Assembly: GCF_036971445.1 (NCBI RefSeq)
Contig: NC_091474.1
Location: 151,404,001 to 151,468,000, forward strand
Direction: 5' to 3'
Source: Narcine bancroftii
Taxonomy: Eukaryota
DNA length: 64,000 nucleotides
The position numbers and the translations under genes are program-made. Shown one piece after another: positions 7,895-64,000 of the stretch. The notes under the pieces are model-generated. The model saw only the letters and a program-made list of their open reading frames with translations. It ran no database searches and was not told where the DNA came from. The stretch's first letter is position 1. The number at the start of each line of letters is the position of its first letter.

Positions 7895-8263
7895 GAAAAT
7901 CTCAATCTTTTTCTTTCCACTCACATACCACTTTAAGTATTCTCTATGTCATAGGTGGTCTGTAATTCATAAGGGATTGCTTAAGGTAGTATGTGGGTGG
8001 AAAGAGTTTGAAAACCACTGTTTTAATTGTACCTAATTGACTCGTTACGTGCATGGTTTCGTAACTCCAAAGGAAATGGGCCAATGACAATTTTTCTCAA
8101 GCAAAATATTTCAGTAACAATTGTGTCTAGAGGTGTGATTCTCAACCTTCCCTGCTCACTCACATACCACCTTAAGTAATCCCTTACTAATCACAGAGCA
8201 CATATAGCACAGGGAATACTTAAAGTGGTATGTGAGTGGAAAGAAGCAGGTTGAGAACCACTG
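7895..8263. mobile_element. Composite double-hairpin hAT-type MITE (copy 1 of 3)
   Basis: Two ~130-bp palindromic modules (CACTCACATACCAC.TTAAG...CTTAAGGTGGTATGTG), each ending GAAAACCACTG or GAGAACCACTG, joined by a shared ~115-bp spacer. Confidence 0.8.
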
Positions 8264-29959: not shown

Positions 29960-32175
29960 CCGGGGGGAGGGGGGTGTTTAAACTAAATTTGCAAGAGAAT
30001 GGGAACCAGAGGATCAGAACAGATAGAGGAGTAAAGGAAGGAAAAGATGATATGAAAATTGCATGTAATGTGATAAGTCAATGGGTTGTACAAGGTGGAA
30101 ATGTTTTCTGGTGAATCTATTTCAATGTAAGAGGTATTGTAGAAAAGCAGATGAGCTTAGAGCGTGAATTGGTGCATGGAATGATGACATTGTGGCCATT
30201 AGTGAAACTTGGTTGCAGGAGGGGCTGGACTGGCAGCTCAATGTTCCATGCTTCTGTTTTTTTCAGATACGATAGAACGGGGTTGGGGGGAAGGGGATGA
30301 AAGTGGTAGGAGTGAAATTACTCATCAAGGAAAATATCAGGCACGATAGACCAGTGAGCCCATCTAAAGAAGTTATATGGGTGGAGCTGAGGAATGGGAA
30401 AGGTACACCATACTCATGGGGTTGTATTATAGACCAACAAATAGTCAATGAGACTTGGAGGAGCAAATTTGTAGACAGATAGCAGACAACTGCAGGAAAC
30501 AATAGTGGGAGATTTTATACTGTAAAGGGGCTGGATGGCTTGGACTTTGTCAAATTTGTGTCAGGAATTTTTTGTAAATATAAAGAGGTATGAATTAGAT
30601 CAGTAGTTTTCAAACTGTCCCCTCTAAACTCACATTTCACCTTAAGCAATCCTGATACCATTGGTGCTCTGTGCTTAGTAAGGGATTGCTTAAGGTGGTA
30701 TGTGAGTGGGAAGGGAAGGATGAGAACCACTGCTCTAGACTCAGTTGTTATTGAAATGTTTTGCTTGAGAAAAATTGTCTTTGGCCCAATGCCTTTGGAG
30801 TTATGAAACCATACACATAACGAGTCAATTAGGTTCAATTAAAACAGTGGTTTTCAAACCTTTTTCTTTCCATTCACCTACCACCTTAAGCAATCCCTTG
30901 CTAATCACAGAGCACTTATGGCATAGGGAATACTTAAAGTGGAATGTGAGTTTAGGGGGGGGGGAAGTTACTGGATGTTCACTTAGGGAATGAGACAGGA
31001 CAGACGACAGAGTATGTGCCGGGTAAAATTTTAGGTCTTGTGATCATAATGCCATTAGATTCATGTTAATTATGAAGAAGGATGGGTCTGGGTTGAGATT
31101 CTAAAGGCCAATTCTGAGGAAATGAGAAAGCATCTAGAATGCATGGATTAGGATAAGTTGTTTTCGGACAAGGATGTGTGAAGTAAGTGGAGGACCTTCA
31201 AAGGTAAAATTTTGATAGCATAGAGTTTGTATGTTCCTGTCAGAATTAAAGCCAAAGTTAGCAAGCACAAGGAATATTGATTTTCGAGGGATAGAGGTGA
31301 ACTGGTTTGGAAGAGGTATAGTAGGTATAGACAACATGGAACAAACAAGGTACTTGAGGAGTATAAAAATGCACAAAAAACCACAAGAAATCAGGAAGGC
31401 TAAAGGAAATCATGAGGTTGCTTTGGCACACAATGTGAAGGAAAATCCTAAGGGTCTCAACAGGTATATTAAGACAAAATTGGTCCCCTAGAAGATCAAG
31501 TGGTCGACTTTGTATGGAGCCAAAAGAGATGGAGGAGACCTTAATTTTTTTCCCCAATCAGTATTCACGCAGAAGACTGACTCATGGACAGTAAAGAAAA
31601 CAAGCAGTGAGGTCATGAAATCTATACAGATTAAAGAGGAGGAGGTGCTTGCTGTCTTAAAGCAAACAAGGGTGGATAAATCCCCAGGGCCTAACAAGAT
31701 ATTCCCTTGGACTTTAAGGGAGGCTAATGTTTACAGGGATGTTGCCTGGACTTCAGGAACTGAGTTACAGAGAAAGGTTAAGCAGGTTAGGATTTTATTT
31801 CCTGGAGCATAGAATGAGGGGAAATTTGATAGAGGTATTTACAATTGTAAGTGGTCAAGACAGAGTAAATATAGGTGGCTTTTTCCACTGAGGCGAGGTG
31901 AGATACAAACCAGGGGATGTAGGTTAAGGATTAAAGGAGAAAAGTTTAGGAGGAACTACTTCACACAGAGAGTGGTGAGAGTGTGGGACAAGCTGCCAGC
32001 TGAAGTAGTGAATGCAGGTTCAATTTTTACATTTAAGAAGAATTTGGACAGGTATATGGATGGGAAAGGTATGGAGGGCTATTGGCTGGTTGCAAGCCAG
32101 TGGGACTTGGCAGAATTATAGACAGACTAGAAGGGCCAAAGGTGCCTGATTTTGTACTGTAATATTCTATGGTTC
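29960..32175 (+). mobile_element. Decayed CR1 (endonuclease region to 3' end, RT deleted), interrupted by a MITE
   Basis: Motifs DIVAISETWLQ, EVIWVELRNGKG, DKSPGP and FTQRVVRVW, ending in a TTCTATG tail. Confidence 0.82.
30601..30968. mobile_element. Composite double-hairpin hAT-type MITE (copy 2 of 3, opposite orientation)
   Basis: Begins CAGTAGTTTTCAAAC. Has the same two palindromic modules, with the spacer reverse-complemented relative to 7895-8263. Confidence 0.8.
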
Positions 32176-36286: not shown

Positions 36287-36484
36287 TGTAGTGAACTGGG
36301 AATTCACGACTGATGTGATGTCCTAAGGACTGGCTTCTCCCCCAACTCTGTCCCTGCATATCCTGATATAAACCCTGGATCCCTACCAAACCCCAGTTCA
36401 GTCCAAAGACTATTGTGTGTTATTCTTACTGAATAAAAGTGTGTGGTAATCTCTCTTGTCTTGAGTGCTCTCAGTCGCGCTACA
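36287..36484 (+). promoter_or_regulatory. 5' LTR of Gypsy A with TATA, Inr-like and poly(A) signals
   Basis: TGTAG...CTACA termini, TATAAA 36367-36372, TCAGTC 36398-36403, AATAAA 36432-36437. Confidence 0.8.
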
Positions 36485-38773
36485 ATTTTATTCAGTAGAG
36501 GATGGAAGCTCTGTTGAACACAATGCCGCTCCTAATTGACTCTGTCCCCAGAGGAATTCACATACTGGCTTCCAAATGGACGTGGAAGGCATACAAATGG
36601 ACTACTTCATGGATGAACTCAAGACATCAGCGCTCCTTTCACACATCAGACCTAAAGGATTCCCAACCATCAGGGACTGGACTACTTATGAATTGGCCAT
36701 CGAAAGGCTGAAAGATCGCTACATGAGGCCCCGAAATGTCATCCTGGGAAGACATCAGCTCTCACAACGGAAGCAGCAACCTAGTGAGTCCATTGAAGTT
36801 TTTGTCCTCATCCTACAAGCATTTGCGAGGAACTGAGGGAACGAAGATGGCTCGGCCTGAGAATGGGAAGACAAGCAGATCTGGGAAGCTCTTGTCAGTG
36901 GTGTGAGGTCCAAGTACATCAGGCAACAGTTGCTGGAGCAAGGCAGCACGGTGCTGTCTGACAACGTGTGACTGGCCAAGTCACTGAAGATGGTTGAACT
37001 GGGAGCTGATAACCTGGAAGGCGACGGCCTACAGTACCAAGGGATGCTTTTTCTGCAGTCAATGTCCTGCTAAAGACTCCATCTGCTCCATTTGTGGTAA
37101 GAAGGGGCACAGGGTGAGGGTCTGCAGGGCGAGGGGGAGTACTGAGAGGTCCAACGCATGTGTGACCCCCATGTGTGACTGAGGTGAGTCCAAAGCCCAA
37201 TCCCATGACCTCCCAATGCCAGTGTTGTGTGCCATGGCCTTCTTGTGGGGCTGCACAGTGAGGGCAGCGATGCGGGAAACCCCAGCGGCCATCTATCCAC
37301 ATTTTGAATCTGGTGTCATTCTCATCAGATGAGGAGGGAGAGCAGCCATATTGTCACATTGCTTGGTCTCTGCCATCTTGCCAGTTTTCAAAATCGGCAC
37401 CAGCAGAAGGAGAGTGGCCATCTTGCTGCACTTTGTGGCCCCCGCCATCTTGCCGACCTGACAATCTGTAAGGGGGGAGCAACCCCAGTGAGGGGAATGA
37501 CTGCATCTCTGGAGTCCTGGCAATGATGGTGTTGGACCAGGAGATACCTCACCAACTGAACAATTCCACGATCAAGGTGGGAGTTAACCGACATAAACTG
37601 AAATTTTTAATTGACCCTGGTTCGACTGAGAGCTTCACAGATGCAGAGACAGTCCAAAAACTTAAAGTGTACCCTTCTAATTATTGTATTTTTTTAGCAT
37701 TCCATATGCAGTCTGTAAATATTCAAGAACATTGTATAGTTCATTTATCTTTGCAGGAGGGGGAAATTCTGTAAATTCAGAATGTATACACTTAAGAATT
37801 TATGTGCACTGGCTTCTAAAAATGTGACCCTGGAGTATTCTGGTCCTCGTCCCCCCCATTACGGTTCGGAGCAGAAGGCCCCAAAATTCTGATGCCTCTT
37901 GTTGTTTCTCCAAACTGAATATAGATCCACCTCCACTGTTCCCAAATCTGAGTGCTGATTGCAGACCAATTGCTATGAAAAGCAGGCGCTATAGTGCAGA
38001 GAACTGGGCATTCATCAAGGCTGAGACACAGGCACTGCTTGATGAGAACATTATCGAGCACAGTACCAGTCCATGGAGAGCTCAGGTAGTTGTGGTAAAG
38101 GGGGAAGAAAGGTCCAGGTGAGTAATTGGCTATAACCAAATTATTATTCATTTTACACTCCTGGATGCATACCCCCTCCCTCGTATTTTGGACATGGTGA
38201 ATAAAATTGCGCAGTATAAAGTTTATTCAACCATTGACCTTAAAACTGTTTACCATCAATCCATTCTGAGTACTGTCCCTACACGGCTTTTGAGGCTAAT
38301 GGGAGACTCTATCAGTTTCAGACAGTTCCATTTGGTATCACAAATGGGGTCTCAATCTTCCAGAGACAAATGGACCAAATGGTAGACAAATTTAAGTTAA
38401 AGGCCACCTTCCCCTACCTCAACAACACTACCATTTGTGGCCACTCTCTGGAGGACCGTGACACCAATTTCCAGAATTTTCTTCATGCAGCAGAGGCCCG
38501 GAACCTTACTTACAACACCAGTGTTCAGGGCTAAACCCCTAGCTATATTGGGCTGCGTGGTTGAGAATGGCATCACTGGCCACGTCCCCAACAGGATGCA
38601 CCCCCTGTTGGAACTCCCAATCCCGAGAACCACAAAAGCTCTGAGGAGGTGCCTGGGCTTCTTCTCATATTATGCCCAGCGGGTACCTCAAGATGCAGAC
38701 AAGTTTCTTAAAAACCACCCTCTTCCCACTGGCAGGTGAAGCTCAAAATCCTTTCAACTATGTCAGAAGCCAC

Positions 38774-40565
38774 GTTTTTTAAATTTTTTTTTAAATTTTT
38801 TCACACTATGAACCATATTGACCAAAATACACACAAACATTTCCCTCTTGAATATACACAGTGTCATTTTCTCCCCTTCCCCCCCCCCCCACTCACTCAA
38901 CGTTCAACATATACAATACATCAAATCCATTAAACAATGTCATCACACAATGAAAATAAACAAGAAATTTGTGTCTTCTACTTTTACATACTGGGTCAGT
39001 TCATTTTGTCTTCTTCTCCTTCTGTCATTTTAGGAGGTGGAGGTCCGTGGTAGAACTTCTCTATTGTGTTCCATGTACGGTTCCAAAATTTGTTCAAATA
39101 CTGTGATGTTATTTCTTAAATTATATATTATTTTTTCCAATGGAATACATTTATTCATTTCTATGTACCATTGCTGTATTCTCAGGCTATCTTCTAATTT
39201 CCAGGTTGACATAATACATTTTTTTGCTACAGCTAGGGCTATCATAATAAATCTTTTTTGTGCTCCATCCAAATCGAGTCCAAGTTATATTACTTAGAAG
39301 AAAGATCTCTGGATTTTTTGGTATGTTGCTTTTTGTGATTTTATTTAATACCTAGTTTAGATCTTCCCAAAACTTTTCCACTTTCTCACATGCCCAAATT
39401 GCATGTACTGTTGTTCCCGTTTCCTTCTTACAACGAAAACATCTGTCTGATACTGTTGGGTCCCATTCATTTAACTTTTGGGGCATGGTGTATAGCCTGT
39501 GTAACCAATTATATTGTATCATGCGTAACCTTGTGTTTATTGTATTGCTCATAGTTCCAGAGCATAGCTTTTCCCGTATTTCATTTTTTATCTTTATGTT
39601 TAGATCTTGTTCCCATTTTTGTTTGGGTTTACAGCTTGTTTCCTCGATCTCTTTCTCTTGCAGTTTGATGTACATGTTTGTTATAAATCTTTTAATTATC
39701 ATTGTGTCTGTAATCACATATTCAAAATTGCTTCCTTCTGGTAACATCAGTCTGCTTCCCAATTTGTCCTTCAAGTAGGTTTTCAGTTGGTGGAACGCAG
39801 ACATTGTACCATGAGTTATACCATATTTGCCCTTCATTTGTTCAAAAGATAATAATTTATTTCCCGAAAAACAATTTTCTATTCTTTTGATCCCTTTTCT
39901 CTCCTATTCTCTAAAGGAAAGGTTATCTATTGTGAAAGGGATTAGTTGATTTTGCGTCAATATTAATTTTGGTAGATGATAATTTGTTTTATTCCTTTCT
40001 ACGTGAATCTTCATCCAAATGTTGAGCAGATGGTGCAGTACTGGTGAATTCCTATGTTGCACCAACTTTTCATCCTACTTATGTAGTATATGTTCAGGTA
40101 CCTTCTCCCCTATTTTATCTAGCTCTAATCTGGTCCAATCTGGTTTTTCCCTTGTTTGATAAAAATCTGATAGGTATCTTAATTGTGCTGCTCTATATTA
40201 ATTCTAAAAGTTTGGTAGCTGTAAGCCCCCTTGTTTGTACCATTCTGTTAATTTATCTAGCGCTATCCTCAGTTTCCCCCCTTTCCATAAGAATTTCCTT
40301 ATTATTTTCTTTAGCTCCTTGAAGAATTTCTCTGTTAGGTGAATTGGTAATGATTGAAATAGGTATTGTATCCTTGGGAAGATATTAATTTTAATGCAAT
40401 TTACCCTTCCTATCAGTGTTAGTGATAAGTCTTTCCAGTGTTCTAAGTCGTCTTGTAATTTCTTCATTAATGGCTGATAATTTAATTTGTATAGATGGCC
40501 TAGTTTATTATCTAGTTGTATACCTAAGTATCGAATTGCTTGTGTTTGCCATCTAAATGGTGATT
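38774..40565 (-). mobile_element. 5'-truncated L1-clade LINE inserted in the pol gene of Gypsy A
   Basis: ORF2 fragments (YLGI, GRVNCIKINIFPR, CFRC..HAIWAC) and an A-rich tail at ~38775-38810. 9-bp TSD AGAAGCCAC at 38765-38773 and 40566-40574. Gypsy pol resumes in register after the insertion. Confidence 0.93.
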
Positions 40566-48277: not shown

Positions 48278-49589
48278 GAGGTATCATTAAAGAAGAAATA
48301 TCAAGGCATTTGGAGCAAAATGGATCCATCGGACAGATGCAGCATGAATTTAGCAAAGGCAGGTCGTGTTTGACAAATGTACTGGAGTTTTTTGAGGCTA
48401 TAGTGAGTGCAGTAGATAAGGGAGAGCAGATAGATGTTGTTTACCTGTATTTCCAGAAGGCATTCAATAAGGCGCAGCATTAAAGACATACAAAAGATAA
48501 GGATGCATAGAAATGGGGATGATGAAGATTGGTTAACAAATAGAAAGCAGAGAGTTGGGTCCCAGGGTTGTCTTTCTGAATGACAATCAGTGGTGAGCAG
48601 TGCATCTCAGGAGCCGCAGATGTCCCCAGGACTATTCACAATATAAATGATCTGGAAGAAAGGACAGAGTGTAGCGTATCCAAGTTTGCTGATGAACTAA
48701 CTTGAGTGGAGAAGCAAATTGTGCAGAGGTTATGGAGAGTCTGTGGAGAGATATAGATAGGTGAAGTGAGTGGGTAAGGGTCTGGCAGAAGGAGCACAAT
48801 GTTAGAAAATGTGAGGTCATCCACTTTGGAAGGACAAATGGAAGATCGGCGTATTATTTAAATGGGAAGCGATTGCAGCAGGCTGCCATGCAGAAGTGGG
48901 AGTACTTGTCCATCTAGGTGCAGCAGCCTATCAAGAAATCGAATGGAGTGTTGCCATTTATTGACAGAGGGGTTGAACTTAAGAGCAGGGAGGTTCTGCT
49001 GCAACTGTACAAGGTACTGATTTTTCCCCATCTGGAGAACCACATCTAGTTCTGGTCTCCTTTCTTGAGAAGGATGTTCTGGATTTGGAGGCAGTGCAGA
49101 GGAGGTTCACACCAGGTTGATTCCAGAGATGAGGTGATTAGGAGAGAGCAAGTTGTTTGGGAGTGTACTCGCCGGAATTTTGAAGAATGAGAGGGAACTT
49201 TATAGAAACAAATACAATTGTCAAAGATGTAGATAAGATAGAGGTAGGTAAGTTTTTTCCATGGGTGGGGGAGACCAGAACTAGGGGACATAGAGTCAAC
49301 ATTCAGGATAGTAGATTTTGGATTGCTTTTCCCAGAGGTTGGTGAATCTATGGAATTCCCTGCACATTGAAGCAGTGGAGGCTACCTCAGTAAATATATT
49401 TAAGACAAGGCTGGATAGATTTTTACCTAGTGGGGGAATTTGAGATATGGGGGTAAAGGCAGGTAGGTGGAGATGAGCCAAGCATCAGATCAGATGGCCT
49501 ACTCCTGCTCCGATTTTTATATCGTTCTTGCCCCTTCCTGAATTGATTGGATACATTAAAATATTTAAATTCCAATTACATCTGGCAGA

Positions 49590-51990: not shown

Positions 51991-53156
51991 TAGCTGAAGA
52001 TGCAGGAAAAAAGCACTCTGCGTGGAATCCTGAATTGATGTTGACGTTCCAGAGAAGAGAAGTAAAAACAAGTAGCCTCAACTCCAGCTACAAGTTCTTG
52101 AAATCCTTGTTTAAACAAGTGCATATTGTCCTTATGCAAGGGGAACAGGTGGATGAAACCCTAATGCCAAAAGGAAGCCCTATCTGAACCAAAGGGAACT
52201 TGTCAATGCAGAAGGAAGAGCAACTTTCCTCTTTCACTCATTGGGAATTTAGGAATGGGGACAAGTTGGTAAAGGAGGCAAGAAATAACAGTGTACATTC
52301 ATGAGGAATATTGGAAATGTCAATCCTTTCAGAATTGCTAAAGCACTTGCATAATTTTTAAAAAGAGGCAGATTTATTGAAAATCTGAAGCTTGGACATG
52401 CATGAATTATTGCCCAAAGCAGATGAGGTGCAAAATATTAGCTGGAAAGCATCGTGTGCTCTGATAACGCCACCAAGCCAAGCTTGAACATCATGGTCCT
52501 TATTATTAACAAAACTCTTTTGTGATTAGTTTCAACCAATTATATTTTATCAAAATGGGACCAGCTTCACAATAAGAAACAGGATATTTAAGCATGTGGA
52601 GAGTTTGAATAATCTTGCAATCAGCAAGAAAAAAAATGAAATAAACACCCTAGTGTAGAAAATAATACAATGGATGAGCAATTGAAGATCGTAGGAAGAA
52701 AATAGTTCTGAAAATTATTTCTTAAATCAATGAGCAACATAAAAACATCAAATGGCAAACAATTGCTCATTCTGTACAACAACACTGATTCAATTAGCAC
52801 CATTCATTCCAATCTCAATTCTGTAATTCTTTTCACGTCTCCTTTTTAAATATTTAGTCAGTTCCCTCCTAAGTAATGTGATGGTCTCCTTGTCAATGTC
52901 CATTTGGAGTAAAAAAAATTCTTCTAACATTCCCTGGGATTTTCCAGTGAATATTCTATGCCAATTATGATCCGTCTCACCACCACAACTTATCACTGCT
53001 TACACTCTGAAGCTCAGAACCACAACTCTGGACCTATTTTAACCTCTTTTCATTGTTTTAATAATAATGAAAAAAACCTTCGTTATAGGGTTGGAGCATG
53101 TGCATGTTATAATTTTAACATTCTAAAAAGTAAAGCCTCCCCACAAATATTATTTC

Positions 53157-53514
53157 AAAGTTTCCCAAACTTTTTCTTTCCACTCACATACCACCTTAAG
53201 TAATCCCTATGCCATAGGTGTTCTGTGATTAGGGATTGCTTAAGGTGGTATGTGGGTGGAAAGAAAAAGTTTGAAAACCACTGTTTTAATCATCCCTCAT
53301 TGACTCGTCATGTGCACGGTTTTAAAATTCCAAAGGAAATGGGCCGATGACAATATTTCTCAAGCAAAATATTTCAGTAATAATTTAGTCTACAGCAGTG
53401 GTTCTCAACATTCCCTTCCCATCTTAAGTAACCCCTTACTAATCACAGAGCACCGATGGCATTGGAATTACTTAAAGTGGGATGTGAGTGGAGAGAAAAA
53501 GTTTGGGAAATCCT
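53157..53514. mobile_element. Composite double-hairpin hAT-type MITE (copy 3 of 3)
   Basis: Same modules and spacer as 7895-8263, with internal CAGTGGTTCTCAAC and GTTTGAAAACCACTG. Confidence 0.8.
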
Positions 53515-57748: not shown

Positions 57749-60700
57749 TGTGGAGCACACAATAATCACATCGACATGATGGAGTGATTAAACGGCTTTA
57801 ATTATCAAAAACCTGAACATTACTGATACACTAACTGGCCAGGTTCCTGGGACAGGAGCAAGTCCAGGTACACCAGGCTTTATTGGGAAATCTGGGGAGG
57901 AGCCAAGGGAGGGGTTAGGGAAGGTCAGGAGGTTTGGACTGGCTAGTCCGTACATCTATGCAAATACCTTTCAGCACATTTACCTCTTCTCTTAGATAAA
58001 ACCCAGTGGGGTGATATGGCGACATAGAGCACATACTGTACTTTATTACATATATACATTCCTCATAGTGTCCATCACAGCTTCAGCCTGCCCAGTGGTC
58101 TCGTGATTCTCTGTAACTTCTGAGGCGCTGGGCGAGCCCCTGTTGTTCCTGCGCCGAGCTGTGTGGGTTGAATTTCGGTTACAGAGCTCTTTTCTGCCTG
58201 TTCGGGTGGGCTCCTTGCTGGTGAGATCTCTGTGGGGCTGGTGACTGGTGCTGGGGGTTATGGGGGGGGGGGGGGGAAGGAATATGTCAAAATCCTGGGA
58301 CGTTGATGGGCGCTGTGTTGATTGTCTGTCTGGTTCTTCTGGGGTCACCTGCTCAGCATTAGTGTACCCTGCCTGGGCAAGGTCTCGTACTGACACCGAG
58401 TCCTCCCTCCCATCCTGGTACTGCACAAATGCTTATTATGGGTATGCGTATACCAGATGCATTTTTCCACCAGGGAATCTATCTTGTTGTGTCTAATAGG
58501 TCTGTGAAGAAGTATTGGCCCCAGAATCATCAGCCAGACTGGTTTCAGATGCCAATCTCCTGGGAAAAGAAAAGTTTCTCCTGGGTGGGGGGGGGGGGGT
58601 GGCATTTGTAGCCGTGAACAGCAAGGACCCGGTAGTGTGCAGTGCATCTGGTAGTACCTCTTGCCATTGGGAGACAGGCATCCCTTTTGACGTGAGGGCC
58701 AACAGGATTGCTCTCCAGATTGTACCATTCTCCCTCTTCACTTGCCCATTCCCGTGGGGGTTGTGGCTAGTAGTTCTGCTCATGGCTGTCCCCACTGCCT
58801 GTAGGTACTGGCGTAGCTCCTGACTCATGAAGGAGAAACCCCTGTCACTGTGTATGTAGCTGGGGTATCCAAACATAGTGAATATGGTCTGAAGTGCTTT
58901 GATGACCATGGCTGCAGTCATGTCCGTACAAGGGATAACAAACGGGAACGGGGAGTACTCATCCACTACATTCAGGAAGTACAGATTTCTGTATTGGATG
59001 GAAGGGGACCCTTGAAGTCCATACTAAGACGTTCGAAGGGAAGGGTTGCCTTAATCAGCTGGGCTCTATCTGGTCTGTAAAAATGTGGTTTACATTCGGC
59101 ACAGATCGAGCAGTTATGGGACAGTTCCCAAATCTCTTCAACTGAGTCGGGTAAATTTCTAGCCCTCACAAAGTAATACAGTTTTGTGACCCCGGGGTGG
59201 CAGAGCTTGCCCTGCAGGAACTCCAGACAATCTGCTGGTATGCTGGCACCTGTTCCCCAGGACAGAGCATCAGGTGGTTCATTAAGCTTCCTGGGCAGTT
59301 CTCATAAATTGTACATGGAGAGTTTGATGATCTTATCATTTTTTATTTTATCCCACTGTTAGTTGTTAAACATAAATGTGATGGCCCTCTGGTCCATCAG
59401 CAGGCTAAATAATACCTCTAGTGGCGCACAGCTTCCACTATGGCCTGCGCCTCTTTCCCAATTGCCGAAAGCTTGAGTTCCAGGCCCTGGAGTGTTCTAG
59501 AGAAAAATGCCACTGGCCTGCCTGCCTGATTCAGTGTGGCTGCTAGGGAAACATCAGAAGCATCATCTTTCCACTTGGAATGGGATGGATTCTTCAATGG
59601 CATGCATCACCGCCTTGGCAATCTCATCCTTGATACCCTCGAAGGATTAACGAGCCTCCGCTGATGGGGGTAAATCTATCGTCTTCACTAATGGCTGGGT
59701 CTTGGGGACCAAATGGGTATAATAGAAAAAGAACCAGAGGCACCTTTTCAGGGCTTTCAGGTTCTGGGGCAATGGTAGATCCTAAGGGTGAGCATTCTCT
59801 CAGGGTCCAGGGACACGATCCCTCCCTCCGCCACCTACCTTTGTATCACCAGCCGTGAAGTGCAGAACATGCACTTCTTCTAATTATACGTTAGTTTTTG
59901 CTGTGGTGAGGAATTCTAAGGGAATTCGTATTCTTCCACATCATGGCTGCATATAGTGACATTATCCAAATACGGGAACATTGCCTTTAGCTTGTGATCA
60001 TCCACCCTGCGGTATATCTCCCTTTGGAACACCGATACCCCATTCGTCAGACTGAATGGCACCCAGCGGAACTGCTACAGTCGGCCATCAGCTTCAAAAG
60101 CCTGTCTTCTGGGCAGGTTGGGATCTGATGGTGTGCTGACAAAGTCTATGGTGGAGAAGACCCGATATTGGGCTATCTCATTCACCATGTCAGCAAGTCA
60201 GGATGGGAGGGTAGGCATCCAGTAATGTAAATCTATTCACAGTCTGGCTGTAGTCAGAACCATCCAGTTTTCCTCCCCCCCCCCCCCCACCCCCACTTTT
60301 ACCACCAACACCCGAGCTCGCCGGGGCTGTTCTTGGGCTCAATGTCACCTTCGGCCAACAGCCTCTGGACTTCAGATTTAGTGAAATGTCTGTCCTCCAG
60401 GCTATATCTCCTGCTTTTGATGGCTATCAGTCTGCAATTATCTGATGTGCTCTAATAGCAGAGGCGAAGGGACCCGAAGTGGGGACAGCTCACACATACT
60501 CACCAGCTTGCTCTCATTGGGTGGGCCAAATTCTTTGTTCTTCCCCGTGATCTGGGGGGGGGGGGGGGGTGGACCGTCAAACTGCATTGTTACACTTTCC
60601 AGCTACACTGGAAGTCTAACCCCAGGATAACCGGCGCACAGAGTTTGGACATTACTGTGATCTTAAAATCCCTGTACTCCCTGCCCTGCACCCTTAAATC

Positions 60701-62256
60701 TACCCGACAGTACCCACACATCTCTGCAGACTGGGCTTTAGATGCCAGGGATATTCACCTTCAGTGCACAATGCTTTATTATGTCTGGGTGGATTAAACC
60801 TTTGGTTCTCCGTGTCAAACAAACACCCCATGATGCAACCCTCTACCTCGCTGTTCATCATTGATCGCGCTAGCTGGTGAGGTCTGTTCTGATCCAGTGT
60901 CACGGAGGCCAGGGTTAGGTCTGATTCAGTCACCATTGTATCATTCCTGTCCGTAATATGTCAGACTCGGCACCTCAGAAGATGACTGCCCCCAGTACTC
61001 ACACATGGCTGGGACCGGAGGTGAAGTTATCGATCGCTGATCCAGAGCTGAAAGTGACATTAACCATCATCGTCTTGGTGACCCGTCAAAGATGGTGACC
61101 CGTCCCTAGGATCACACGTGGAACTGCTGGTAGTGGGCTTCCCCCAGCACACCTTCGCATAGGGCCCTTTCTTTTTGCAATTTGAATACCCTGCGTTCCT
61201 GGCCAGGCAGGATTTCCGGGGGTGCATGGCCAGCCTGCAGAACCTGCACTTGCTGACCCTGGCCATCAGTGCCATATCCATTTGCTGGACCGCCGGCAGT
61301 GTAAGCCTCACAGCTTTGCACCGCAGTATCCATTGTCTCCCCCAAATCCAGTACTCCTTGCAACATACAGTTAATTTTTTTCCAGGAGTCCTTGATGGAC
61401 CTGGTTCGAAAGCATGCTTGGCAGCAGTCTGTTTCACTTCAGCTCATCAGCATACTCGGAGGCACTCACCACGGTACACCACAGAACAACATCAGACCAC
61501 AACCTCTGACCTCAGTCTCCCATAACCAGCTCTCTCATCACCCGTGCGAAATGTGTGAAGGGCTCCCCAGGGGCTTGACACCGGGTCATTAATTTGTACC
61601 TCGCATACATTGGGTTCGTTGGGGTCCCGTTCTGCTTTTGCAGCAGGGCCATCACCTTGTTGTACGTTAGGCAGTCTCTAATTATTCAAAACTCCCGATA
61701 GTTCATGGATGCAAACAGGAGATAGTACTTATCTTCAGCATCCCTTAGGTTGTGGTGGTGCATCCTGTGCAGCCATCTCTCAAAGGCAATGTCTGCGATG
61801 AGCTCCCTGGGTTCAATTGTGAGTGTAGTCAGCTGGCAAACTTCTCCCATTACCCGCTGCAGAGTTGATGCAGACCCCAGGGGGTGTGTCCGCTACTGCA
61901 CCACATGGCTGAGTCGACTTCACCATCTGTGGGCTGGATGATCGGGCATCTTCCAAATCGCTGCTCCCTTGTCCTGTATGTTGAGCTTCCATGGTTTTTG
62001 TTTTGGCCATTAAATTGTGGAGCACATAATAATCACGTCATCATGACGGAGTAATTAAATGGCTTTAATTACCAAAAACCTCAGCAATACTGATACACTA
62101 CTTGGCCAGGTTCCAGGTACAGGAGCAAGAAAGGCCAAGTCCGGGCACGCCAGCCTTTATTGGGAAATCTGGGGAGGAGCCAAGGGAGGAGTTAGGGAAG
62201 GTCAGGGAGGTTCAGACTGGTCAGTCCATACATCTATGCAAATACCTTTCACCACA
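57749..62256 (-). mobile_element. Gypsy/Ty3 LTR retrotransposon B, decayed, near full length
   Basis: LTRs 62016-62256 (5') and 57749-57978 (3'), about 89% similar by eye. Minus-strand PPT AAGAGAAGAGGTAAA. Gag knuckle region CRFC...CKKKGPYAKVC, protease CLFDT, RT FPYLDNVTIC, RNase H DASDVSLAATLNQAGRPVAFFSRTL, integrase DEYS..YIHSDRG..GNGQVKREN. Confidence 0.95.
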
Positions 62257-62427: not shown

Positions 62428-62644
62428 GGTCAAGCAACACTTCACTTATGTATCTGCAGGATTGATTTGCTGCATCCAGTGTTCTGTTTGTGGTCTTCTC
62501 TACGACAGAGAGACTGGACACAAACAGAAGATTGTTTTACTGAACACCCTCGCTCTTCAGCGTTAGTAACAGTGACCTCCCTGTAGCCGACTATTTCAGC
62601 ACTGTGTCGCACTCCCATACTTACCTGTCTGTCCATGGTCTCAT
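62428..62644 (+). mobile_element. Penelope-like GIY-YIG fragment cut by a CR1 insertion
   Basis: VKQHFTYVSAGLICCIQCSVCGLLYDRETG, a degenerate form of the IYC...LYIGET motif. Confidence 0.75.
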
Positions 62645-64000
62645 AGAAACATAGAAGCATAGAAGATAGGAGCAGGAGTAGGTCATTCGACCCTTCAAGC
62701 CTGCTCCGCCATTCAACGAGATCATGGCTGATCTTAAAGTTCAGTATTCCGTCCCCGCCTTCTCTCCGTAACCTTTAACACCCTTATACTGAAGAAATAT
62801 ATCTAATTCCCTCTTAAATATATTTAATGAACCTGCCTCTACTGCCCTCTGTGGCAATTAATTCCACAGATTCACCACCCTCTGGGTCAAGAAATTCCTC
62901 CTCACCTCGGTCCTAAATGGTTTGCCTATTATCTCAAACCATGACCCCGGGTTCTGGATTTTCCCATCATTGGAAACATCCCATCTGCATCCATTCTGTC
63001 CAGTCCTGCCAGAATTTTATGTCTCTATGAGATCCCCTCTCAATCTTCTAAACTCCAGCGAGTACAATCCCAATTTGCGCAATCTTTCCTCATAAGTCAT
63101 TCCTGCCATTCCAGGTATCAGCCTGGTGAATCGCCTCTGCACTCCCTCCATTGCAAGAACATCCTTCCTTAGATAAGGTGACCAAAACTGCACACAATAC
63201 TCCAGGTGTGGTCTCACCAAGGCCCTGTACAGCTGCAGTAAGGTATCCTTGTACCTATACTCAAACCCTCTTGATATGAAGGCCAACATACCATTTGCCT
63301 TTTTAACCGCTTGCTGTACCTGCATGCTCGCCTTCAGAGACTGGTGTACAAGTACCCCTAGGTCTCTCTGCACTACCCCATCTCTTAATCTATTGCTATT
63401 CAAATAGTAATCTGCCCTCCGGTTTGTATTACCAAAGTGGATAACCTCATATTTATCCACATTGTAGTGCATTTGCCATGGATCTGCCCAGTCCCTCAAT
63501 TTATCCAAATCACACTGGATCTTCCTGACCTACTCTTCCGCGCACACAACCCCTCCTAGCTTAGTGTCATCTGCAAATTTGGAGATATTACATCCAATCC
63601 CCTCATCCAGATCATTAATGTAAATTGTGAACAGCTGGGGTCCCAGTACAGATCCCTGTGGCACCCCACTGGTCACCACCTGCCACTCAGAAAACGAGCC
63701 ATTTATCCCAACTCTCTGTCTTCTACCTGCCAGCCAGTTCTCAATCCACATCAATACTTTGCCCCCAATCCCATGAGCCTTGATTTTGTAAGCCAGTCGT
63801 TTATGCGGGACCTTATCGAAGGCCTTTTGGAAGTCCAGGTACACCACATCCACTGGCTCTCCCCCATCTATTTTACCTGTCCCCATCTCAAAGAATTCCA
63901 ATAGATTTGTCAAGCACGATTTACCTTTTGTAAATCCATGTTGACTCTGTCCGATCCCTTCTCTGCTAGTCATATGCTCCGCTATTACATCCTTAATAAT
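62642..64000 (-). mobile_element. Young CR1 LINE, RT domain to 3' end (continues beyond the window)
   Basis: Motifs [48 protein letters not shown] and RPHLEYCVQFWSP. One in-frame stop at 63530-63532, a frameshift near 63020, and a (TTCTATG)-type tandem tail. Confidence 0.96.

Follow-up and report, generated by a model that had tools for sequence, protein, structure and literature searches.

A duplex at the primer-binding position of a clade of Gypsy elements from Narcine bancroftii points to priming from an internal segment of the element's own leader

In this work, a duplex between a segment of R in the 5' LTR and the primer-binding-site (PBS) position just behind that LTR was found to be a real, clade-wide structure in a group of Gypsy elements present in Narcine bancroftii. 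We hypothesize, with a probability that we put at roughly 80%, that these elements prime reverse transcription from the internal 5' R arm of this duplex in place of a tRNA, a reading drawn from the sequences of their genomic copies. The window (the whole stretch of 64,000 nucleotides that was analysed, positions 151,404,001 to 151,468,000 of NC_091474.1) holds a Gypsy B element at 57749-62256 on the minus strand and its sister element Gypsy A. The features concerned are as follows.

62016..62256, minus strand: 5' LTR of Gypsy B, 241 nt, TG...CA, with the same ends in other genomic copies
62154..62161, minus strand: TATA-like AATAAAGG at LTR position 96, read from the sequence; putative role by analogy with the young sister family
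62064..62077, minus strand: 5' arm within R, where the 3' end of the self-primer is predicted; ATTAAA occupies the final 6 nt (62064-62069)
62015..62063, minus strand: 49-nt loop comprising the end of R, U5, the terminal CA and the spacer A (62015); minus strong-stop DNA is predicted to be copied from it
62001..62014, minus strand: 3' arm at the primer-binding-site position, aligned against 30 Gypsy B copies
58373..61992, minus strand: decayed single gag-pol frame with many stops and frameshifts; ATG at 61992, 24 nt past the LTR
57979..57993, minus strand: polypurine tract (PPT) of Gypsy B, read from the sequence
57749..57978, minus strand: 3' LTR of Gypsy B, with a copy of the arm at 57797-57810
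36427..36497, plus strand: matching hairpin in the sister element Gypsy A (5' LTR 36287-36484; arms 36427-36438 and 36486-36497; loop 47 nt)

The hairpin that had been predicted for Gypsy B was confirmed at its coordinates: the LTR ends in CA at 62016, a single spacer A follows at 62015, and the arms occupy 62014-62001 and 62077-62064. A recount returned the same 12 Watson-Crick pairs, one G-U pair and one mismatch around a loop of 49 nt, and the ATTAAA poly(A) signal (62069-62064) does lie within the 5' arm. By analogy, transcription of Gypsy B would start about 30-35 nt downstream of the TATA-like element, roughly at 62125-62130. The window copy alone is modest evidence, as 8 of 2000 dinucleotide-shuffled versions of the terminal 120 nt of the LTR also reached 12 of 14 pairs, the folding z-scores were -0.8 and -1.5 in two windows, and a stem probability of 0.01 in leader context predicts that this copy does not fold as a hairpin. 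The predicted stem probability of the Gypsy A window copy is 0.93. The 3' arm of the Gypsy B copy carries two private substitutions at 62007-62008 (1/30 Gypsy B copies). A TGG at +7 in this copy was considered as a tRNA site and ruled out, since it is private to one of the 30 copies.

The gag-pol frame of Gypsy B encodes a twin-CCHC gag, PR, RT, RNase H and integrase according to tblastn matches in all three frames, and an rve Pfam match lies at 58493-59023. The arm copy in the 3' LTR (57797-57810) has no partner downstream, so the 3' poly(A) signal stays exposed. A comparison of the 5' and 3' flanks of this copy gave no matching target-site duplication (TSD), which has been lost. Because the TSD is missing and the 5' and 3' LTRs are only 84.6% identical, the window copy is either old or a recombinant of two copies; it is a dead element without likely function. 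Other elements in the window include a LINE fragment at about 38790-40550 (weak zf-RVT match), which is an antisense insertion inside Gypsy A, and LINE fragments at about 62640-64000 (minus strand) and 48328-49405 (RVT_1 match), which we take to be CR1/L2-like and of which the former ends in a short tandem tail. A MITE-like element of about 350 bp, whose terminal repeats are internally palindromic, is present in three copies at 7918-8257, 30593-30971 and 53147-53510.

At the family level, the pairing is far beyond chance in both Gypsy B and Gypsy A. By aligning 30 of the 42 listed Gypsy B matches and 30 of the 40 listed Gypsy A matches, with the window copy in each set, absence of the pairing from the family could be examined directly: all 14 positions form Watson-Crick pairs in 11 Gypsy B copies, 13 do so in 13 copies, 12 in five and 11 in one, so that 24 of the 30 copies hold 13-14 pairs. 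In Gypsy A, 18/30 copies pair at 12 of 12 positions. Stem probability with leader context exceeded 0.5 in 21/30 Gypsy B and 20/30 Gypsy A copies, and the local stem probability was 0.93-0.99 in 11 of the 11 copies folded, while the loops folded variably. A tRNA-type TGG within 8 nt of the LTR was found in 0/30 Gypsy B and 0/30 Gypsy A copies; this check concerns the TGG motif, and priming by half-tRNAs is excluded only by the variability of the arms between families.

The survey of the clade covered 179 loci, namely 80 of the 150 integrase relatives listed in this genome, 20 of the 150 control-family matches and 79 metagenome loci. A TSD was demanded to fix the LTR ends, so that the hairpin played no part in placing them; automatic calling of LTR ends failed on decayed copies. 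An integrase match was present at 177 loci; 87 were without an LTR pair and 25 without a shared CA, which left 65, and a TSD was verified for 26, comprising 25 clade elements (6 LTR clusters), all with a 5-bp TSD, and one control. In 23 of the 25 TSD-verified clade elements, the arm starts exactly 1 nt past the CA of the LTR, and in 22 of the 25 the Watson-Crick run is at least 13, compared with a maximum of 6-10 over 200 shuffles per element. The flanks of the 3' LTRs of these elements gave runs of 3-6 only. The leader to the ATG, where one was found, measures 16-36 nt.

Furthermore, 31 LTR types were picked by hand, 13 from this genome and 18 metagenomic. Perfect stems of 11-19 bp with loops of 31-79 nt occur in 22 types, and the nine types with no perfect stem of at least 10 are four decayed copies from this genome and five metagenome loci. 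The types differ in arm sequence, and so do sister subfamilies whose LTRs are alike; when partners were swapped between types (462 pairs) the median was 5 paired positions and 8 pairs reached at least 10. No TGG lies at the best stem in any of the 31 types. The control family from the same genome is without a stem (in L111 a run of 6, matched by 27/200 shuffles); its primer site is, we presume, tRNA-Pro-like, and the Cer1 site quoted in PMC3315495 begins alike. As a separate observation, the locus L128 is a self-priming-type element nested in another LTR element with a TGG-type primer site. Since the family copies keep the pairing and the shuffled and swapped controls score far below the real stems, the view that the hairpin is functional rather than a chance pairing is supported.

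In the integrase tree, which holds no chromovirus outgroup and no Tf1 or sushi sequences, Gypsy A and Gypsy B fall in a 13-row clade of this genome (support 100/99) nested in a 27-row group, every row of which shows or may show the stem. The LTR sequences of the two families had been described as unrelated, and they do not align, but the elements as a whole are related; their likeness is therefore inheritance. In the same way, the pairing is indeed kept across both families, but this reflects shared descent in one clade, and the geometry agrees in that a matching hairpin exists in Gypsy A, although with a loop of 47 nt against 49 nt in Gypsy B. The clade has the Ty3/Gypsy domain order PR-RT-RNase H-IN, and the TG...CA LTRs and polypurine tract in the window and the 5-bp TSDs in the clade likewise agree with Ty3/Gypsy. 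Among solved structures, Ty3 Gag-Pol was the best match (E 7.5e-62). The named protein homologs nearest to a sister family come from rays and sharks, followed by a nematode and a sea anemone, and no relatives were found in viral contigs. A search for sushi-like elements with SH3_Tf2-1 gave weak matches, several of them beside control-family matches.

The limits of R could be read from copies of the young sister family, in which the LTR runs into poly(A) at about 219-222 in six places, 15-19 nt past AATAAA (198-203); the hexamer of the arm is therefore the signal actually used. One of the six, the retrocopy L337, starts at LTR position 153 with one extra G, which we take to be a cap signature, and has a poly(A) end and a TSD. 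The A at which it starts belongs to an Inr-like motif and lies 32 nt past a TATA-like element (121). As far as genomic copies delimit it, R is shown to extend from about 153 to 220, with the arm (189-204) internal and 36 nt from the cap. The position of the transcription start is based on this one retrocopy together with the pile-up of partial ends described below. Further start-anchored retrocopies were not found among 25 candidates: 24 were ordinary LTRs, and the other was rejected as a rearranged copy whose junction at 153 had been picked by the search pattern itself. The search for poly(A) retrocopies of Gypsy B found none. Three LTR copies (L332, L333 and L336) begin at position 1, are without U5 and close with a short run of A at the poly(A) site.

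The young sister family also contains insertions which may be regarded as fossils of the priming reaction. In the first case, L236, the arm behind the LTR continues as the reverse complement of the LTR, and an exact search found 114 places with such inverted-LTR run-ons among 1,614 LTR-PBS junctions (~7%; G000, loci L240-L269 and L272-L331). Ninety run-ons were inspected in the coordinates of L078, with the arm at 189-204: the inversion reaches LTR position 4 or lower in 67 and ends sooner in 19, while four are of a further rearranged type. The 67 full inversions comprise 24 palindromic cases of LTR plus inverted LTR and 43 whose loop side is fused to different sequence, for the most part internal. 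Perfect 5-bp TSDs flank 19 of the 24 palindromes, which argues that they were inserted by integrase. The inverted arm differs from its own LTR by a mean of 2.1 differences per 170 nt and from others by 4.7, and the own arm is closest or tied in 15/24 palindromes. The loop-side junctions lie at 194-214, around the 3' end of the arm at 204, in 33/43 cases, and would be explained equally by stalling at the base of the stem. One and the same run-on junction occurs at two loci with different flanks, L244 and L254. Palindromic insertions of this form measure about 430-450 bp, with two U3 ends and 5-bp TSDs; one of them, L247, apparently has its end at a TG inside the LTR (position 176), and its 5-bp TSD matches. 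A recurrent LTR form (L261, L307, L319, L321 and L355) has a short inverted piece of U5 directly behind the arm, with a junction common to all at about position 222.

The 19 partial run-ons end at 14, 92, 115, 130, 149, 150, 150, 152, 152, 153, 154, 155, 158, 161, 163, 167, 170, 175 and 176. With L244 and L254 counted once, positions 149-155 hold 7 of the 18 independent ends (P ~7e-5 against a uniform null, corrected for scanning). Pausing of RT at this position could also be due to a weak local hairpin at the Inr. Four of the 19 ends lie beyond the transcription start (130, 115, 92 and 14-44), and three overshoot it by 3-4 nt. Most partial run-ons then join internal element sequence via 0-7 nt of microhomology, as expected of a mis-aimed second jump. 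Most of the fossils belong to the young sister family, and Gypsy B has only two run-on loci (at most 2 mismatches): in L270 the run-on behind the LTR mirrors a variant of its own arm, and in L271 the inversion passes through the LTR and on through the PPT into internal sequence.

We propose that self-priming from the internal arm proceeds from the duplex of 11-19 bp which is seen in the sequence at a fixed register and with no tRNA-type site. In the young sister family, the RNA has the R that the retrocopies show, from 153 to about 220, with the arm internal and the hexamer used for 3' ends. The element's RNase H would cut this RNA just 3' of the arm and its poly(A) hexamer, as in Tf1, and leave a capped leader of about 52 nt; such a leader is the likely primer because the partial ends pile up at the start, mapped 36 nt upstream of the arm. 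RT would then copy the spacer, U5 and about 16 nt of R, giving a minus strong-stop DNA that spans 252 to 205 and would jump to the 3' R through these ~16 nt. In the step which the fossils support, plus-strand DNA would copy the still-attached primer and so rebuild the binding site, by which the two arms would co-vary automatically. At about 7% of junctions, copying would run too far in the direction of the cap, and a mis-aimed jump or a snap-back would follow, producing inverted-LTR insertions; in a snap-back, plus-strand DNA would fold on its own R and extend to LTR position 1. Moreover, since the partner of the arm exists only behind the 5' LTR, outside the LTR itself, the 5' poly(A) signal would be masked by the duplex and the 3' signal would remain accessible.

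The location of the hexamer offers another explanation, in which the duplex, in an HIV-like manner, only masks the poly(A) signal of the 5' LTR and a different primer is used, for instance a small RNA that has escaped recognition. The poly(A) hexamer, which had been named as the target motif of the hairpin, is paired within the arm in 14 of the 22 stem-bearing types, including all nine from this genome. In the young sister family it is the signal in use, 45 nt from the cap; the pairing partner is present only at the 5' LTR, and the part of PMC12789967 consulted provides a precedent in the stem-loop occlusion of HIV-1. However, AATAAA/ATTAAA is absent from the paired arm in 8/22 types, with the hexamer unpaired in the loop in L122, L124 and L136, so the target-motif claim stands for a part of the types. 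The arm ends in TAAA in 20/22. Occlusion would have no need of a 1-nt register to the LTR end, the short leader is without an alternative primer site, and the run-ons show the arm region copied onto the PBS end. As the register to the LTR end is fixed and the hexamer is not, priming is favoured over occlusion, and the sequences point to priming as the main job of the duplex; hiding the 5' poly(A) signal is likely a second use, which cannot be universal. Masking as the sole role is thus very unlikely.

It is also conceivable that the primer is the copy of the arm in the 3' R, the genome ends being paired in a circle or in trans, and that the cut falls immediately before the poly(A) tail. The matching sequence does sit 15-19 nt from the tail, and 67/90 run-ons pass the cap through U3, that of L271 continuing via the PPT into internal sequence. 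On the other hand, the partial ends crowd at the cap site, a boundary that a 3'-end primer would not have, the full inversions mostly stop at LTR position 1, as expected for a snap-back on plus-strand DNA, and the local stem is predicted with the high probabilities given above (11/11 copies folded; >0.5 in 21/30 Gypsy B). As a general explanation this arrangement is unlikely, and for some events, e.g., L271, it is possible. An inverted repeat that is due to chance in AT-rich sequence or is a property of the DNA alone, with the inverted insertions arising as assembly fold-backs or template switches in host replication, would fit the AT-rich arms and the modest significance of the window copy taken alone. 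The shuffle and swap controls already refute it for the clade, while the 5-bp TSDs on 19/24 palindromes, the inversions which stop at the integrase end, and the shared junction of L244 and L254 with different flanks also speak against it. We regard it as extremely improbable.

Self-priming from the internal arm can be compared with known systems. In the sections consulted, PMC7175516 describes that the first 11 bases of Tf1 RNA pair with the PBS and that RNase H cuts between bases 11 and 12. The parts consulted of PMC6317226, PMC4600332, PMC5006619, PMC6934838 and PMC3601003 attribute self-priming to Tf1/sushi, Tj1, plant Tcn1 and copia TAR, the plant Tcn1 and copia TAR self-primers being predictions. 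Within the portions of the literature examined, Gypsy self-priming is confined to Tf1/sushi chromoviruses and to the first nucleotides of the RNA. The present clade resembles Tf1/Tf2 (S. pombe), Tj1 and Tf1/sushi in having a PBS complementary to its own LTR transcript and no tRNA, and resembles the Tf1 type in an RNA duplex of similar length, from which the primer would have to be cut (PMC7175516, PMC4600332, PMC6317226). However, the Tf1 primer is the first ~11 nt, whereas here the paired segment has 11-19 bp and lies 36 nt inside R in the young sister family (start 153, arm 189-204) and presumably inside it in Gypsy B. The arm also differs from that of Tf1 in ending on a conserved TAAA, often as part of a poly(A) hexamer. 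Unlike the Tf1/sushi chromoviruses, the clade has neither a chromodomain nor SH3_Tf2-1 in any of the five proteins scanned, and a twin CCHC gag is found in 85/98 homologs. It is likely that the clade represents a variant of Tf1-like self-priming, with an internal primer instead of the first 11 nt. That it constitutes a separate form in a widespread non-chromovirus animal Gypsy lineage, marked by a primer that comprises the whole capped leader and is cut where the poly(A) hexamer ends, silencing of the 5' poly(A) site, a self-repairing duplex and ~7% of insertions as palindromes or inversions, is a proposal to which we give an even chance.

The polyA hairpin of HIV lies wholly inside the LTR. 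In this clade, the partner is outside the LTR and is the primer-binding segment, which restricts the stem to the 5' end. The likeness to the HIV-1 hairpin and to retroviral 5'-LTR suppression lies in an R signal at both ends and a stem at the 5' end, as the consulted part of PMC12789967 describes for HIV-1; the poly(A) signal in use in the young sister family is in R and in the stem, the location in the stem holding for 14/22 types. For C. elegans Cer1, self-priming is ruled out by the tRNA-Pro site reported in the part of PMC3315495 consulted. Short LTRs, a single ORF, a twin CCHC and a metazoan range are shared with Mag-type clades. The clade may belong to Mag-type Gypsy, known from marine invertebrates and fishes; this is a lead only. 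The part of PMC2774666 consulted did not settle the assignment, the literature examined in part ascribes no self-priming to Mag, and the consulted parts of PMC13524379, PMC10886601 and PMC7472051 hold nothing bearing on this clade. The clade name "Smaug" was rejected, as it had no support in the literature searched. In the searched texts, as far as these were accessible and with Repbase Reports and supplements outside their scope, no description of self-priming in this lineage or of snap-back insertions was found, and a prior description is possible. Repbase Reports are said to hold entries on self-primed animal Gypsy families.

The fossils predict the exact cap, cut and poly(A) site, and the mechanism is thus directly testable; they also reveal a source of short palindromic insertions in a vertebrate genome. 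If self-priming from the internal arm is true, tRNA-free priming arose or survived more than once, with an internal primer and in a different animal lineage, and such elements would be out of reach of silencing by tRNA fragments. It would further bear on the idea, put forward in the part of PMC3601003 consulted, that hairpin priming preceded tRNA priming.
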